Positions 53,201 to 59,200 of a stretch of DNA of 64,000 bases are shown one piece after another (positions within the stretch are counted from its first letter, which is position 1; each line of letters opens with the position of its first letter). This DNA is from a plasmid. The stretch lies in NCBI RefSeq assembly GCF_054482595.1, contig NZ_JBTHVH010000004.1. One strand, given 5' to 3'. Made by a program: the position numbers.

Positions 53201-56200
53201 AACTTGATGGTATGCCTGCGATCAATGCCAAACGTATTTACCGGATCATGCGCCAGAATGCGCTGTTGCTTGAGCGAAAACCCGCTGTACCGCCATCGAA
53301 ACGGGCACATACCGGCAGAGTGGCTGTGAAAGAAAGTAATCAGCGATGGTGCTCTGACGGGTTCGAGTTCCGCTGTGATAACGGAGAAAAACTGCGAGTC
53401 ACGTTCGCGCTGGACTGCTGTGACCGTGAGGCACTGCACTGGGCGGTCACTACGGGCGGCTTCAACAGTGAAACAGTACAGGACGTCATGCTGGGAGCGG
53501 TGGAACGCCGTTTCGGCAACGAGCTTCCGGCGTCTCCAGTAGAGTGGCTGACGGATAATGGTTCATGCTACCGGGCTAATGAAACACGGCAGTTTGCCCG
53601 GATGTTGGGGCTTGAACCGAAGAACACGGCGGTGCGGAGTCCGGAGAGTAACGGCATAGCAGAGAGCTTCGTGAAAACGATAAAGCGTGACTACATCAGT
53701 GTCATGCCCAAACCAGACGGGTTAACGGCAGCAAAGAACCTTGCAGAGGCATTCGAGCATTATAACGAATGGCATCCGCATAGTGCACTGGGTTATCGCT
53801 CGCCACGGGAATATCTACGGCAGCAAGCCAGTAATGGGTTAAGTGATAACAGGTGTCTGGAAATATAGGGGCAAATCCAATACGATCTGCAACGCTCGTT
53901 TTGGTCGAGACGGAGGAATACATAACCTTTTTATCGCTGTCTCGTGTGACCGTCACTCGCTCGTACCGATCAAGACCCGATATCAAGTTCAGAGTCAAAA
54001 CACCAGCGGGATTAAGATATGTTTGTGTTGCAGGTTTGATATTCCGAACAGCCTTATTGGTATCTGTAAATGAGTAGCTAAATACCTGAGCATGTGCCGA
54101 AGATACAGTAGCAAGGGCAGTTGCAACCATGCAGCCAATTAGAGTTTTACGCATATGATGCTCCGGGAATAGGTTATAGCCTTATTCTACGGATTCAGCC
54201 TACAAGGTCCGGTCGGATAAAGTGATAATTTGCCTGTTAAAAGAGACATCAAGTGAGAAAGCAACCAACGTACAGAATGCAAAATGGCGGCAGTGCATCT
54301 GGATGACGCAAAAGTAACTTTTTGTATCCACTTTTTTGGATTTTAGCCTTCAAAATGAGTATTCAACCAATCATAAAAGTAACTTTTGATAGACGCTGCT
54401 CCTTTATGTTTGCCAATTGTGCTGATATGTTTGTAAATTCAAGGAAGCGAGATTTTAAAAGCATCTGTTGAGTCAAATTTATGTAAAATAACAGGGAAAC
54501 CATCACTTCTAGGTTGAGGAAACCCAATGTTATACATGCTCTTATGCTGTTTTCTGATGCTCAACAGTACATTCGTTATGTTCAGAGCAATGTCTGCAAT
54601 AAGTAAAGGATCCGCTAAAGAAAACCGGTCTGAAATATCGCTGATAGTCCTAGCAACACTTGGAATCGCATCACCATTCATTGTCGCAATGATTACTATT
54701 AATGAAAGTATGACATCTAAAACAGTAACAGATTTTTCTTTGGGTGCTCAGTGGTACGGAATGGTTTCAGCGGTAGCGCTAATGGGGTTATATGCTCGAC
54801 GCGTTTGGAAAGAGAAGAAGTCCTTATTTACTGGCGCTTTCCTGGCCTCTTCCTTAATGGCCTTTATTTTTACTGACAGCCTTGTTTTCGTATCCCAGAA
54901 GGACACCGGCGTTCTGGCTACTTTCGTACTCGATAAAAACGCTGGAGATATTGATTGTAGTCGCCCGGCTATGATTGTCCATTACAGTAAAGGTGTTCCA
55001 ACGGACTGGCGTTGCCCAACCAGTATCATGTTGATGGCGTATTCTTCATATCCTTTTTTACCCTGGCCTGAGTATAGCCATGGTACCAGCCAGTCTCTTA
55101 CGGTTGTTATTGATACATTTATGGAAAACGCTGTTAATCTCAGCCAAAAATAAAAAATAAACCTCACTAGTGAGAGGTTTTATAAACCTGAGCCACCAAT
55201 CTAATTAACTCTATATTTTTGTTTTAGCTTTTTTAAAGATAGACTTACCGAATAAAACAGCAATTATAGAGCAAAGGCCTGGCGTTAGGACAAAAGCTAA
55301 TAATGCACTGCCAAAACTTGTCATTTCAGGCACCAGGAACCAGCTGATAGGCCACGTCAGGGCTGGTAAATTTAGCGGATCATAAAGCGCATGTAGAGCG
55401 CTTAACACACAGTAAAGTGCTAAAAAGCAAACTAGATAAACAACGATCCACATTTTAATTTGCTCAGCAATTTCAAATTTTGGACTGCCCATGCTTTACC
55501 TCAGTGGCTGAATATTGATGGTTAATATCTTTAATCACCCGTAAGCACTTAGTGCATACCTTAGTTCGATTTGTCTGCTTGTCCAGAGTGTATTTAACTT
55601 CAAGTTGACCTCCAGCATTAAGCAAAGTGAGCATCTCATCTTCTAACACGCTTCGGTAAATGGTCTTGGCCGAGAGTGTGCCCGGTAACGAGTACTCAAC
55701 ATAATTGTTTGAAACTCTTACCGATTTAGGGATTTTACCACTGAGCTGGGTTTCATTCGTTGAAGGCATTACAGTTACTTTAATCACAGTTGCCGGTGAC
55801 CAGAAATCCTGATAACGCACTTTATGAATTTTATCAGCTCTAAGGCCTAACCACACATTTCCGGCGATAAGAACAATAAGCAATCCATAAACTGATCGTC
55901 GAATGTTACGCCTTTTAATCACAATGTCCCCCATCCCTCAAATATCATTCTAAATAACTGCACCAGGATATCATGAGCGTAATTAATAGAATTCTTCATA
56001 ACCGGGGTTTTCAGTTGAGTTTGCGGACTCTTTACTTTGCGGTTTCTCACCCTCTAGTTGAGTATCCCTGACAGGCTTGGATTTACCCATGCTCCTCTGA
56101 AAGGTATCCATAACAAACTCAATATCTTCTTCTGGCAGGCTGGTGGGTTGGTTGCTCATAGGACTTCCTCTTGTTGAATACGTTCGGCGTACAGGATGCG

Positions 56201-59200
56201 AACCGAAACGGTCGTGTTTTCAAACTCGTTCTCAAAAACGTCCATCCATTCCGTCCGGAATTCTTCCCCCAAAAGGTTATCGAGCCCCTGAAGAGATAAT
56301 GGAAGAACGGCTGCTAGAGATCCCCCGGCTGCGAGATGAGATGCAGCTGCCTGGAGATGCAGCCTGGCCCGGTTATCGGCAAAAGGTGGGTTCATCACGA
56401 CATAATCAAACTTCTTCTGTTGATTAGACTTAGACCATGTGAGGAAGTCAGCTTCTGTCGTATCGTATCCCTTAGCCCGGGAGATAAGGCAATTCAAAGT
56501 ATCAAGCTCGATGCCAGTAACGATCACACCGGCAGGGAATGATTTAAGCAAATCCGCATGGCCAATATTAGGCTCCAGGAGGGTATCCCCTTCCCCTGCA
56601 CCAAGCAGGGAAGATACATATTCGCTGATTCGGCAAGATGAAGGGTAAAACTGATGCGATACAATATCAGGCATCTCCCCTATCTGGCCGATGTAACGAA
56701 TAACCTCACACGGATCATAGGAAAATGTCACATCGTATTTTGTTACTGTTGCCCCTAAGAACCGAAGGGTGTCAGCGGCAACACTCGAAGATTTGCGTTC
56801 GGCGAGAGACCCTAAAGATGTCCAGCAACTCCATTTATTGTCCCCGTCATTTTTAAACATCAGTTCAGAAAGCTGCATCCGGGTATCAAAGTCGATGCAC
56901 TGCTTAAGTACAGGGAATGCCTCCAAAGATTTCTTGCTATGAGCCATACGGTCGGCAGGTAATGCCAGCGGTACGATAGCTGATAAAATATTGTTAAGCC
57001 GCTCGGCGATATCAGGGTGGACGTCAATATGCATTGATCCATTTTTGTAAACCCTGAAACGAATACTGTTGCCATCGATGCAGATCCATTTTCTGAACCC
57101 CTCATGTTCGACCAACGCCTCAACCAATGATTTGGTGTTATGGATCGCCTTCACCTGTTCGCCACGGAAGAATGCGCATATAACGCGGAGCTCGCTCAGC
57201 GGTGAAATGCCAGACTCTTTAAAATCCACCCTTAATTTCTGCCAGGGGTATTTAGACGGCTCGCAAACTCCGGTAGTGATCATGCGGGTGGAGAACCCAA
57301 AAGCTTTGTTTGTCTTGTGACTGCGGCTCAGAGACTGGAAGACGTCGTAAACCCTTTCTTTAATAAATTGATTGCGGTCATTAAGCAAAGCAACGACTGT
57401 GCCCACTACAGCGTCAGCTGTGAAATCAGGGATCACCTGAGGCGGCATAATATAACGGTCGGCCGTAAACTGCTTATCCCATTCGTTACGTTTGGCATCC
57501 GACATGATAGGCAAAACATCAGTGAGTGCCATAACGCATTTCCAGTATTCTGATCTCAGAGCGTTTTCTGCGAACAAAGCATCCGCTTCTGAGATGCTGT
57601 GGTTGTAGCCTGAGAGATAAGAATAAAGTTTCTGGTGATTGTGGGTTTTGAACTGGACAGCCATGAGTTTCAACAAGCAGAGTTCATCATTATAGGACTC
57701 AACAAGATCCGCGATAATGCCGAGCTCTTTGCGCATATCTGGAAGAAATGTTTCAGGAGAGCTAACCACCAGGCTATGAGAGGTTGTTAAAGCCAGTACG
57801 CTGTGACCTGCATTATCGGGTTTAGCTTCAGAATCAAGAGATGACATTTTACCGGTCCTTTAGAAAAAACTTTTACCAGGATAGCAACGTCGCTCAGTAA
57901 CCTAATAGGTTCAGTGACACGAAAAAGTTTTTTATGTCTCTGAATAAAACTTAAAGATGTCAACTCATAGAAAGAAGCAAAAAAAAAGCCCCGCATAAAC
58001 GGGGCAAGAACGATACATGGAGGTTTAAAAAAGGCGGGCAAAAAGCCTGAATCCTTAATGACTCTGACAAAACCAGCACTTTGCCAAAAGTAAATTATTC
58101 TGCGTCCGGCTGTGGGTCAGTATCCTGATCGGTCTCTTCCCCTGCCTTCTTAGCATTTTTTTTACGTGGGTATTTTGGCTTCTCACCATTAAGTTTTGCC
58201 TGACGATTCTCCGCACGGCGAAGCTGCTTGTTCTCTGATTCTGTGATCTCTTTTGAAAGATTTCTCAACATCTCCAGAGTACTGCGGTTCAACGTAATGT
58301 TGATTTCTTCGTCAGCACTTGAATCTGTCAGCTCCGGCAATTCAATATCCCCCAGTTTCTGTAATAAGCTGGTGGTGATGAGTTTGACGCCTTCTACGGC
58401 TTTTGTGGCAATAACCGGCGGAATCCGTGCTGGCTTGAAGTCTGAAGGTCTGACTCGTACCTGACCATGTTGGGTTTTTTTCACCGTGATGCCATTCGCA
58501 TCGGCCTGCTCAAGTTCTGCGATCATCTTCTTGATACGTGAAATTGCTTCTGTTTCGCCGAGCTCATCGATCAGTGAAAGCACGTTAACATACGAAATAG
58601 CGTCAGCATGAATCCATTTCTTGATAACAACAGAACAGGTTGTCAGGCGGATAAGAGAACTGATGGTCGTCGGGCTTTTATTTTCACGTTGAGCAATTCG
58701 TTCGAGTGACCAGCCAGCAAGAGAATGTAGGCGACGATAGGACTCGCCAAGCGCAACAGGAGAAAGCGCAAGACCACGGTTACCATCAATGGTCGCGAGC
58801 TCACAGCCAATTTCATCTTCTTTAATCTCAACGCAAAGGATTGTGATGTCATGATCTTCATCACATGCCATCATTGCGGCTTTTAAACGGCAGTGCCCCT
58901 GGCGAACAAAAGGTACCCCATCAATGACACGTACTCGGATAGGGTCTACATAGTCACCTCGAATGTAGGCATTCTTGATGTTGTAGATGTGTTCTTCAAC
59001 CTCAGGGAGCTTATAGTAATCGTCACCCATTCCCATTTCGCGGGAGTTGAAGCCTGGCGTGACCTGAATTACTGAAGGGTGGATAGCCCATGCTTTCTGG
59101 TCACTTACTTCAGTACAAAGTTCAGGGTTTGCATCACGGAACTGTTTAAGCCCAGTGACGTAACGGCCTGTGCCAGTAACTACTGAAAAGGCAACATGGG

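Follow-up and report, generated by a model that had tools for sequence, protein, structure and literature searches.

A putative orphan adenine methyltransferase of IncHI2 plasmids joins a TaqI-like core to a conserved DUF4942 module

Orphan adenine methyltransferases are commonplace on mobile elements, and several of the described kinds resemble in part the protein reported here. Among enzymes of the gamma class, such as M.TaqI and EcoKI HsdM, the pairing of Y-P-T-P with NPP(Y/F) is a signature of EcoKI/TaqI-like adenine methyltransferases (PMC5512222). The DarB-like methyltransferases of "polyvalent" proteins have a TP-capped helix and NPP(Y/F), with LPD36 and a helicase in the same polypeptide (Iyer et al. 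2017, PMC5512222). M.EcoGIX and M.BceJIII are believed to help a plasmid to become established in the face of restriction, and standard motif calling can miss them (PMC7736820). Here we describe a gene from 64,000 nucleotides of plasmid DNA (contig NZ_JBTHVH010000004.1 of RefSeq assembly GCF_054482595.1), a stretch that we refer to as the window. The gene occupies 56156..57847 on the minus strand, starts with ATG and encodes a 563-residue protein that matches the PHROG family phrog_6263, "DNA methyltransferase," over its whole length (E 1.4e-111). It joins a methyltransferase core to an N-terminal module that includes the Pfam domain DUF4942. The 8-kb region around the gene is ~100% identical to large conjugative plasmids of E. 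coli, Salmonella, Enterobacter and Klebsiella; it matched 1122 plasmid records, with at least 80% of the region covered in 1081 of them, and the records that we inspected (pD90-1, pNDM-M121 and pSSE-ATCC-43845) were all typed IncHI2A. On these matches we assign the window to an IncHI2 plasmid and the gene to its backbone. The corresponding pD90-1 gene is labeled "DUF4942 domain-containing protein" in RefSeq (WP_042634269.1), and the family as a whole is already catalogued in Pfam (DUF4942), PHROGs (phrog_6263) and RefSeq.

The translation and predicted fold identify residues 396 to 556 (56180..56662, minus strand) as a class-I S-adenosylmethionine (SAM)-dependent methyltransferase domain of the TaqI/EcoKI (gamma) type. 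All of motifs X, I, II, III and IV are present, in the same order as in M.TaqI and EcoKI HsdM. Motif X is Q399-F-Y-P-S-S, motif I is LEPNIGHA (residues 424 to 431; 56555..56578), motif II is E447, motif III is D467-F468 and motif IV is NPPF (residues 486 to 489; 56381..56392). Shared with the gamma-class enzymes are the NPP(Y/F) loop and the D-F of motif III, and Y-P-S-S lies in a putative counterpart of their N-terminal capping helix with its (T/S)P-type motif. In an alignment of 172 members of the family, which have a median identity of 30% to the query, Q399, E425, G429, E447, D467, F468, N486, P487, P488 and H497 are 98-100% conserved, with the N-P-P of motif IV at 99-100%, while Y401 and P402 reach 92% and 90%. 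A profile of 21 homologues ranked M.TaqI first among solved relatives (E 9e-5), in an alignment that runs from motif X through motif IV into the next helix and sets LEPACAHG of M.TaqI against LEPNIGHA, with its VEID and ADFL also falling in the motif I-III region. A comparison by hhalign with the methyltransferase domain of phage P1 DarB gave a probability of 95.8% (E 7.9e-9; positions 396-532 of our alignment A1 against DarB 81-234). The full-length AlphaFold2 (AF2) model (mean predicted local distance difference test score, pLDDT, 80; predicted template modeling score, pTM, 0.72) has a complete seven-stranded class-I fold in residues 422 to 556, and the protein ends 7 residues beyond the last core strand. 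Pfam gave only weak matches in the catalytic part, to MTS (PF05175, E 1.2e-4) and N6_Mtase (E 3.7e-3), PADLOC models for Type II and orphan methyltransferases matched at E ~1e-6, and NCBIfam had no meaningful match for the 563-residue protein.

A preliminary description, made from the sequence alone, had called this protein a methyltransferase with an NPPF motif about 75 residues from the C-terminus, and had named the lack of a motif I, together with catalytic inactivity, as the finding that would speak against it. The analysis above agrees: motif I is in place and 74 residues follow NPPF. No C-terminal target-recognition domain is found, nor do the flanking genes include an HsdS-like neighbour, and NPPF therefore lies near the C-terminus because the core is compact and no recognition domain follows it. 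The enzyme is not permuted. The protein thus differs from M.TaqI and EcoKI HsdM in having neither the C-terminal domain nor the HsdS partner but a ~360-residue N-terminal module instead, and in that no cognate nuclease was found near the gene. Against homologues on IncHI plasmids, the catalytic domain has proportions of nonsynonymous and synonymous differences (pN and pS) of 0.12-0.28 and 0.72-0.84, respectively; we used pN and pS and left dN/dS aside because every available homologue is distant enough to saturate the synonymous sites. Against the IncHI homologue at comparison locus L007, no part of the protein has a lower pN than the catalytic domain (0.124). The gene is intact, and as judged from such substitutions both of its halves are under purifying selection.

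The N-terminal module is where this protein departs from the described systems. Pfam places DUF4942 (PF13708) at residues 96 to 290 (56978..57562; E 1.7e-21, HMM positions 3-186 of 190), the domain that had been suggested for a search, and the ~360-residue module as a whole had no relative among solved structures. In an AF2 model of residues 32 to 398 built on 125 sequences (pLDDT 90, pTM 0.86), helices span residues 36 to 172, followed by an alpha/beta part at 189 to 290, a linker, and a small alpha/beta subdomain at 319 to 395 (56663..56893) just before the core. DUF4942 itself is thus divided into one half made of helices and a second, basic one of alpha/beta type, and it is preceded by a variable helical part at residues 36 to 95 (57563..57742; AF2 helices 36-67 and 69-79). 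Basic charge is concentrated in residues 173 to 318, with the remainder of the protein acidic. Conservation was measured per domain across 155 family sequences less than 60% identical to each other. DUF4942 has a mean pairwise identity of 0.46 and 18% of its columns are at least 90% conserved, close to the catalytic domain (0.44 and 15%), whereas the subdomain at 319 to 395 (0.27 and 5%) and the helices at 36 to 95 (0.24 and 2%) are variable; the subdomain also ranges from 66 to 112 aa in length. Invariant in the fused family are an L-S-x-x-H-x-T-N motif (including L173, S174, H177, T179 and N180), W102, W123, W254, H273 and N285. At residue 104 (57538..57540), the window has Cys (YWKCV) where most homologues in alignment A1 and the copy on the Salmonella Senftenberg plasmid pSSE have Arg (YWKRV), and this residue is the sole difference from the S. 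Senftenberg protein.

The window holds a second DUF4942 protein, which has no methyltransferase domain. It is encoded at 1796..2626 on the plus strand (276 aa; the RefSeq coding sequence is slightly shorter), and Pfam finds DUF4942 in its residues 77 to 265 (E 3.4e-26). BLASTP aligned the methyltransferase with it over ~250 residues at 22% identity (E 7e-6; query 55-298, subject 45-272), and both proteins match phrog_38825. The alignment between the two that had been noted earlier therefore holds, and these matches identify the N-terminal half and the free-standing protein as truly homologous rather than alike by chance. The free-standing form shares the domain and carriage by mobile elements with the fused form, but it keeps only some of the invariant residues, lacks S174, H177 and T179, and is paired with a coiled-coil protein. 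Its gene overlaps (ATGA) that for a 401-aa coiled-coil protein at 2623..3828, forming an operon. Beyond this, on the opposite strand, are DUF1173 (4108..5427), a ~56-aa open reading frame (ORF) and the gene for a C5 DNA cytosine methyltransferase (5678..7147), after which comes a thermonuclease. The 1796..7147 module recurs in comparison loci L011 and L012, the latter an E. coli chromosome, and could be a functional unit, possibly with DUF1173 and the C5 methyltransferase as a pair. DUF4942 also stands alone in chromosomal islands, for example as L0010 of LEE/SRL-type islands, beside toxin-antitoxin and anti-restriction genes.

Compared with P1 DarB and the polyvalent proteins, the IncHI2 protein has a homologous core, is likewise carried by mobile elements and presumably serves the same anti-restriction use. 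It is unlike DarB in that it is neither fused to an SF2/SNF2 helicase (Pfam found no helicase domain) nor a giant multi-domain or virion protein, in that the N-terminal neighbour of its core is DUF4942 and not the four-helix LPD36, and in that its motif IV is NPPF where DarB has NVPF. M.EcoGIX and M.BceJIII are also orphan adenine methyltransferases of conjugative plasmids, but they are beta-class DPPY enzymes with another fold order, are encoded in the oriT-proximal leading region and share only the generic fold with the protein described here (PMC7736820). Membership in the M.EcoGIX type was rejected, as M.EcoGIX has the beta-class DPPY where the IncHI2 protein has NPPF and the gamma motif order.

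Taking these comparisons together, the reading that we judge probable, though well short of assured, is that the product of the gene is a SAM-dependent N6-adenine DNA methyltransferase of the orphan kind, which uses its DUF4942 module for substrate binding and modifies the DNA of its own element, most plausibly as anti-restriction. In its architecture it is an uncharacterized variation on a well-known enzyme type. We infer that its substrate would be DNA, that DUF4942 would contribute to binding it and that its purpose would be anti-restriction. We propose that the C-terminal ~165 residues would act as a minimal gamma-class core, which would bind SAM through motifs X, I, II and III and receive a target adenine flipped into the NPPF pocket. 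With no recognition domain at the C-terminus, the substrate would have to be bound by the N-terminal module, through DUF4942, with its basic alpha/beta half and the basic linker, together with the variable subdomain at 319 to 395. The second lobe of M.TaqI lies opposite its catalytic domain, and the module would be arranged likewise. A plasmid or phage could in this way methylate its own DNA, leading to escape from restriction, or a dampening of it, in new hosts. A role in epigenetic marking is also possible.

Several observations weigh against this reading. Sequence-specificity domains are normally variable. DUF4942, conserved like the catalytic core, appears too conserved for a classical specificity domain of this kind, and so the earlier suggestion of an accessory, possibly target-recognition, module is only partly apt: the extra module is there, including DUF4942, but its identity of 0.46 against 0.44 for the core does not fit target recognition well. 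The second observation concerns S. Senftenberg ATCC 43845, whose plasmid pSSE carries a copy of the methyltransferase identical at 562 of 563 residues. The single-molecule real-time (SMRT) methylome of this strain contains six N6-methyladenine (m6A) motifs, all assigned to ORFs BFF41_00175 through BFF41_21025 (PMC5347186). RefSeq locus tags on pSSE begin at BFF41_RS24770, and, if the old and RefSeq tag numbers correspond, the six assigned ORFs would all be chromosomal. The assigned tags lie below the first plasmid tag, and on this reading no motif is left for the plasmid methyltransferase. The missing motif could mean that the enzyme is silent in culture, that it is non-specific, of low penetrance or restricted to a context, or that its substrate is not DNA. 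The third is the SAM site of the IncHI2 copy, which departs from the family consensus (LEPSAGxG for motif I; Q-x-Y-P-T-P for motif X, with T in 91% of sequences) by having S403-S404 for T-P, I428 for A and A431 for G; Y-P-S-S in place of Y-P-T-P is common to this copy and its IncHI relatives. We do not take the departures in motif I as evidence of inactivity, because M.TaqI itself has LEPACAHG. Finally, our literature search found no functional study of the DUF4942 family, which is named only as an annotation label, and no biochemical or methylome assignment or recognition sequence for any family member.

The distribution of the family bears on how these points are weighed. A profile search of 1.84 billion representatives returned 833 matches below 1e-30, and the full-length architecture, mostly 500 to 630 aa, is found in nearly all of the best 150 clusters listed, giving a family of at least 150 clusters at 50% identity. 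By the contexts of these sequences, the fused family is restricted to mobile elements. Homologues that are 54-70% identical lie on IncHI-type plasmids (L007, L008 and L010) in the conserved order of Dam, a ParB-like gene, the DUF4942-methyltransferase gene, a 56-61-aa ORF and a Big-domain protein, and a 47% identical homologue (L002) keeps Dam and the ParB-like gene. More distant members are found in SSU5-like phage-plasmids, in Pseudomonas and Aeromonas phages, in phage-like operons, including early operons with cro/cII-like and DnaT-like neighbours, on a 390-kb contig with ligase and exonuclease genes, and in an island that carries type IV CRISPR-Cas genes. At L006 the homologue belongs to the early region of a prophage, where a cII-like and a DnaT-like gene flank it and C5 and N6_N4 methyltransferases are close by. 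Giant phage proteins that bear internal virion or structural annotations match the core as well, with the subdomain at 319 to 395 included in the match (residues 321-524 for phrog_9133, for example), in keeping with the DarB-like methyltransferases of polyvalent proteins. Neighbours differ completely between plasmids, prophages and islands, the neighbourhood being kept only in IncHI plasmids, and no nuclease or fixed partner was recognized in the neighbourhoods that we examined. Orphan DNA methyltransferases are repeatedly adjacent, with Dam on IncHI plasmids, the C5 and N6_N4 enzymes at L006 and a beta-class SPPY enzyme at L013. On the last of these, a phage-like contig, the stop of the DUF4942-methyltransferase gene overlaps (in the region 2720..2878) the start of the second, beta-class gene, which has a "TSPPYW" motif, and the two appear to be translationally coupled. 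At L004 (12093..16612), on a 177-kb contig that also has a phage integrase, only a few kb separate a 29% identical member from genes of a type IV CRISPR-Cas system, namely those for Csf3, a helicase resembling DinG and a Cas6/Csy4-like protein.

The alternative that survives best keeps DNA as the substrate and adenine as the target but changes the mode of action. The enzyme would not be specific for a motif in the classical way. It would act only transiently, on a particular form of DNA (single strands of a plasmid on entry, or a plasmid in replication) or with relaxed specificity, and DUF4942 would read a structure or a conserved host or plasmid factor instead of a sequence, functionally in the manner of M.EcoGIX or P1 DarB. 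We consider this unlikely yet deserving of attention, because no methylome motif is free in a strain with a 99.8%-identical copy and because the N-terminal domain is unusually conserved, tracking the core at ~30%-identity divergence. It also agrees with the homology of the core to DarB and the giant internal virion or structural proteins and with the family members in phage early operons, and there is precedent in that low-penetrance, single-strand-specific plasmid methyltransferases, for example the unrelated M.EcoGIX, can escape standard motif calling (PMC7736820). Several features of the locus point the other way. The gene lies between the RepHI2 and RepHIA (trfA) replicons, near the trhL/E/K/B/V transfer genes (pD90-1 annotation), rather than in a demonstrated oriT-proximal leading region. 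There is no clear Frpo-like single-strand promoter hairpin upstream, where we found only an 11-nt inverted repeat and a modest fold (single-strand fold z-score of the 5′ leader, -2.2). M.EcoGIX belongs to a different family, beta-class DPPY, there is no helicase partner of the DarB kind, and the methylome result could reflect mere lack of expression. Extended to the family, the same idea would make the DUF4942-methyltransferases a distinct class that marks DNA by context (entering, single-stranded, replicating or with relaxed specificity), with a structurally novel N-domain replacing the sequence reader and DUF4942 serving as a general "establishment" or anti-defence module. We hold this view tentatively and think it improbable; if true, it would explain the absence of an attributable motif in the published methylome.

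It is quite doubtful that the substrate is not DNA at all, and that the protein instead methylates RNA (ribosomal or transfer RNA, at m6A or N2-methylguanine, m2G) or protein glutamine, like METTL5, RsmC/RlmG or PrmC/HemK, with DUF4942 as a substrate adaptor. The best Pfam match in the catalytic part is MTS, RsmC appeared in the profile search (E 6e-3), and the published methylome has no DNA motif attributable to the enzyme. The fold likeness to RNA enzymes is that of the generic class-I fold, however, whereas the sequence profile places a DNA enzyme, M.TaqI, closest among solved structures, with motifs X to IV in the alignment, the DarB methyltransferase domain matches with the high probability given above, and the family is confined to plasmids and phages, where it clusters with other DNA methyltransferases. 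A similarly slim, marginally smaller chance falls to a protein whose methyltransferase domain is weakened or inactive in the IncHI2 copy and which is kept for a non-enzymatic role of DUF4942 (DNA binding, regulation or anti-defence), a job that the free-standing form would share. The three SAM-proximal departures (S403-S404, I428 and A431), the presence of DUF4942 alone on the same plasmid and in chromosomal islands, and the lack of an attributable motif would all fit such a protein, but none of the key catalytic residues (E425, G429, E447, D467, F468 and NPPF) is lost, the catalytic domain has the lowest pN against L007, motif I of M.TaqI is also non-canonical, and the free-standing DUF4942, without S174, H177 and T179, indicates that the two subfamilies need not share a function. 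That the gene is the modification half of a plasmid restriction-modification or other defence system we regard as highly implausible: weak PADLOC matches to Type II methyltransferase and mad2 models, and some database homologues labeled "restriction endonuclease subunit M" or "RE endonuclease," speak for it, but the PADLOC matches are limited to the generic methyltransferase core, neighbours differ completely across plasmids, prophages and islands, and PADLOC scans of six flanking or nearby window proteins found no restriction or defence partner, with no nuclease or defence model matching any flanking gene scanned (no match for the four proteins flanking the methyltransferase cluster, and only weak coiled-coil or low-scoring matches for the two near the free-standing DUF4942 copy).

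Around the gene, the minus strand reads in the order of a ParB-like helix-turn-helix (HTH) gene, a strong terminator-like hairpin, the methyltransferase gene, a 58-aa ORF and two further small ORFs. The ParB-like protein (58095..59258, 387 aa) was recognized by HTH_ParB of Pfam (E 1.7e-4) and by TIGR00180 (E 6.7e-8). The GC hairpin with its T-run, at 57988..58005 on the minus strand, implies, as a sequence feature, that the predicted methyltransferase transcription unit is separate from the ParB-like gene. A counterpart of this gene adjoins the methyltransferase gene only in IncHI-related plasmids (44% identical in L002), and no equivalent was found at L004. The ParB-like gene was rejected as an obligate partner of the methyltransferase, given synteny within IncHI-related plasmids only and the terminator-like hairpin between the two. 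Divergently oriented, at 59607..60440 on the plus strand, is a Dam-family orphan adenine methyltransferase (TIGR00571, E 1.5e-67) that is syntenic in the related loci L002, L007, L008 and L010. A second ParB-like HTH gene (62469..63524) and a gene for a zinc-finger-like protein (61538..62254) belong to the backbone cluster that includes Dam and the DUF4942-methyltransferase; the same four loci keep two ParB-like-sized genes and Dam, with HTH_ParB annotated in L002 and L010. Directly upstream of the methyltransferase ribosome-binding site, the 5′ leader contains an 11-nt perfect inverted repeat, AAAAAACTTTT / AAAAGTTTTTT, around a smaller hairpin (57864..57933), which may be an operator or a leader structure.

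The 58-aa ORF (55983..56159, minus strand) has a start that overlaps the methyltransferase stop (ATGA) and encodes an acidic product with a net charge of -6. Its position is kept in four IncHI-type loci at 33-63% identity, with F15, D18, F20, K28 and V30 conserved, and its pN and pS against L007 are 0.27 and 0.74. By these measures it is probably a real gene, and its translation is probably coupled to that of the methyltransferase in the IncHI2 plasmid. It is absent at the locus of the 47% identical homologue (L002) and downstream of all more distant homologues examined. The preliminary description had proposed it as a possible partner. Because it is missing beyond IncHI-type plasmids, we regard it as a lineage-specific neighbour and not as a family-wide partner. 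Directly after it on the same strand, at 55211..55934, are ORFs of 153 and 93 aa with hydrophobic stretches that suggest membrane proteins; they may share a transcript with the methyltransferase, and the IncHI-type loci L007, L008 and L010 have neither of them here. Farther along, a Big/Ig-like domain gene that is intact in pD90-1 (818 aa) is split in the window into 53702..54154 and 50362..52506 (minus strand). Coordinate offsets between the window and L001 suggest that the split is due to an insertion of ~1.3 kb with IS3-family-like ORFs (52595..53868).

IncHI2 plasmids are major carriers of mcr-1, extended-spectrum beta-lactamase (ESBL) and heavy-metal resistance genes. Several orphan methyltransferases are encoded on them, including the DUF4942-methyltransferase, Dam and the C5 enzyme. 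If the DUF4942-methyltransferase helps these plasmids to evade restriction in new hosts, it would contribute to the host range of IncHI2. More broadly, it represents a widespread family in which a standard TaqI-like core is joined to a conserved DUF4942, and once a single member is solved, DUF4942 would be defined and thousands of genes would gain an annotation.

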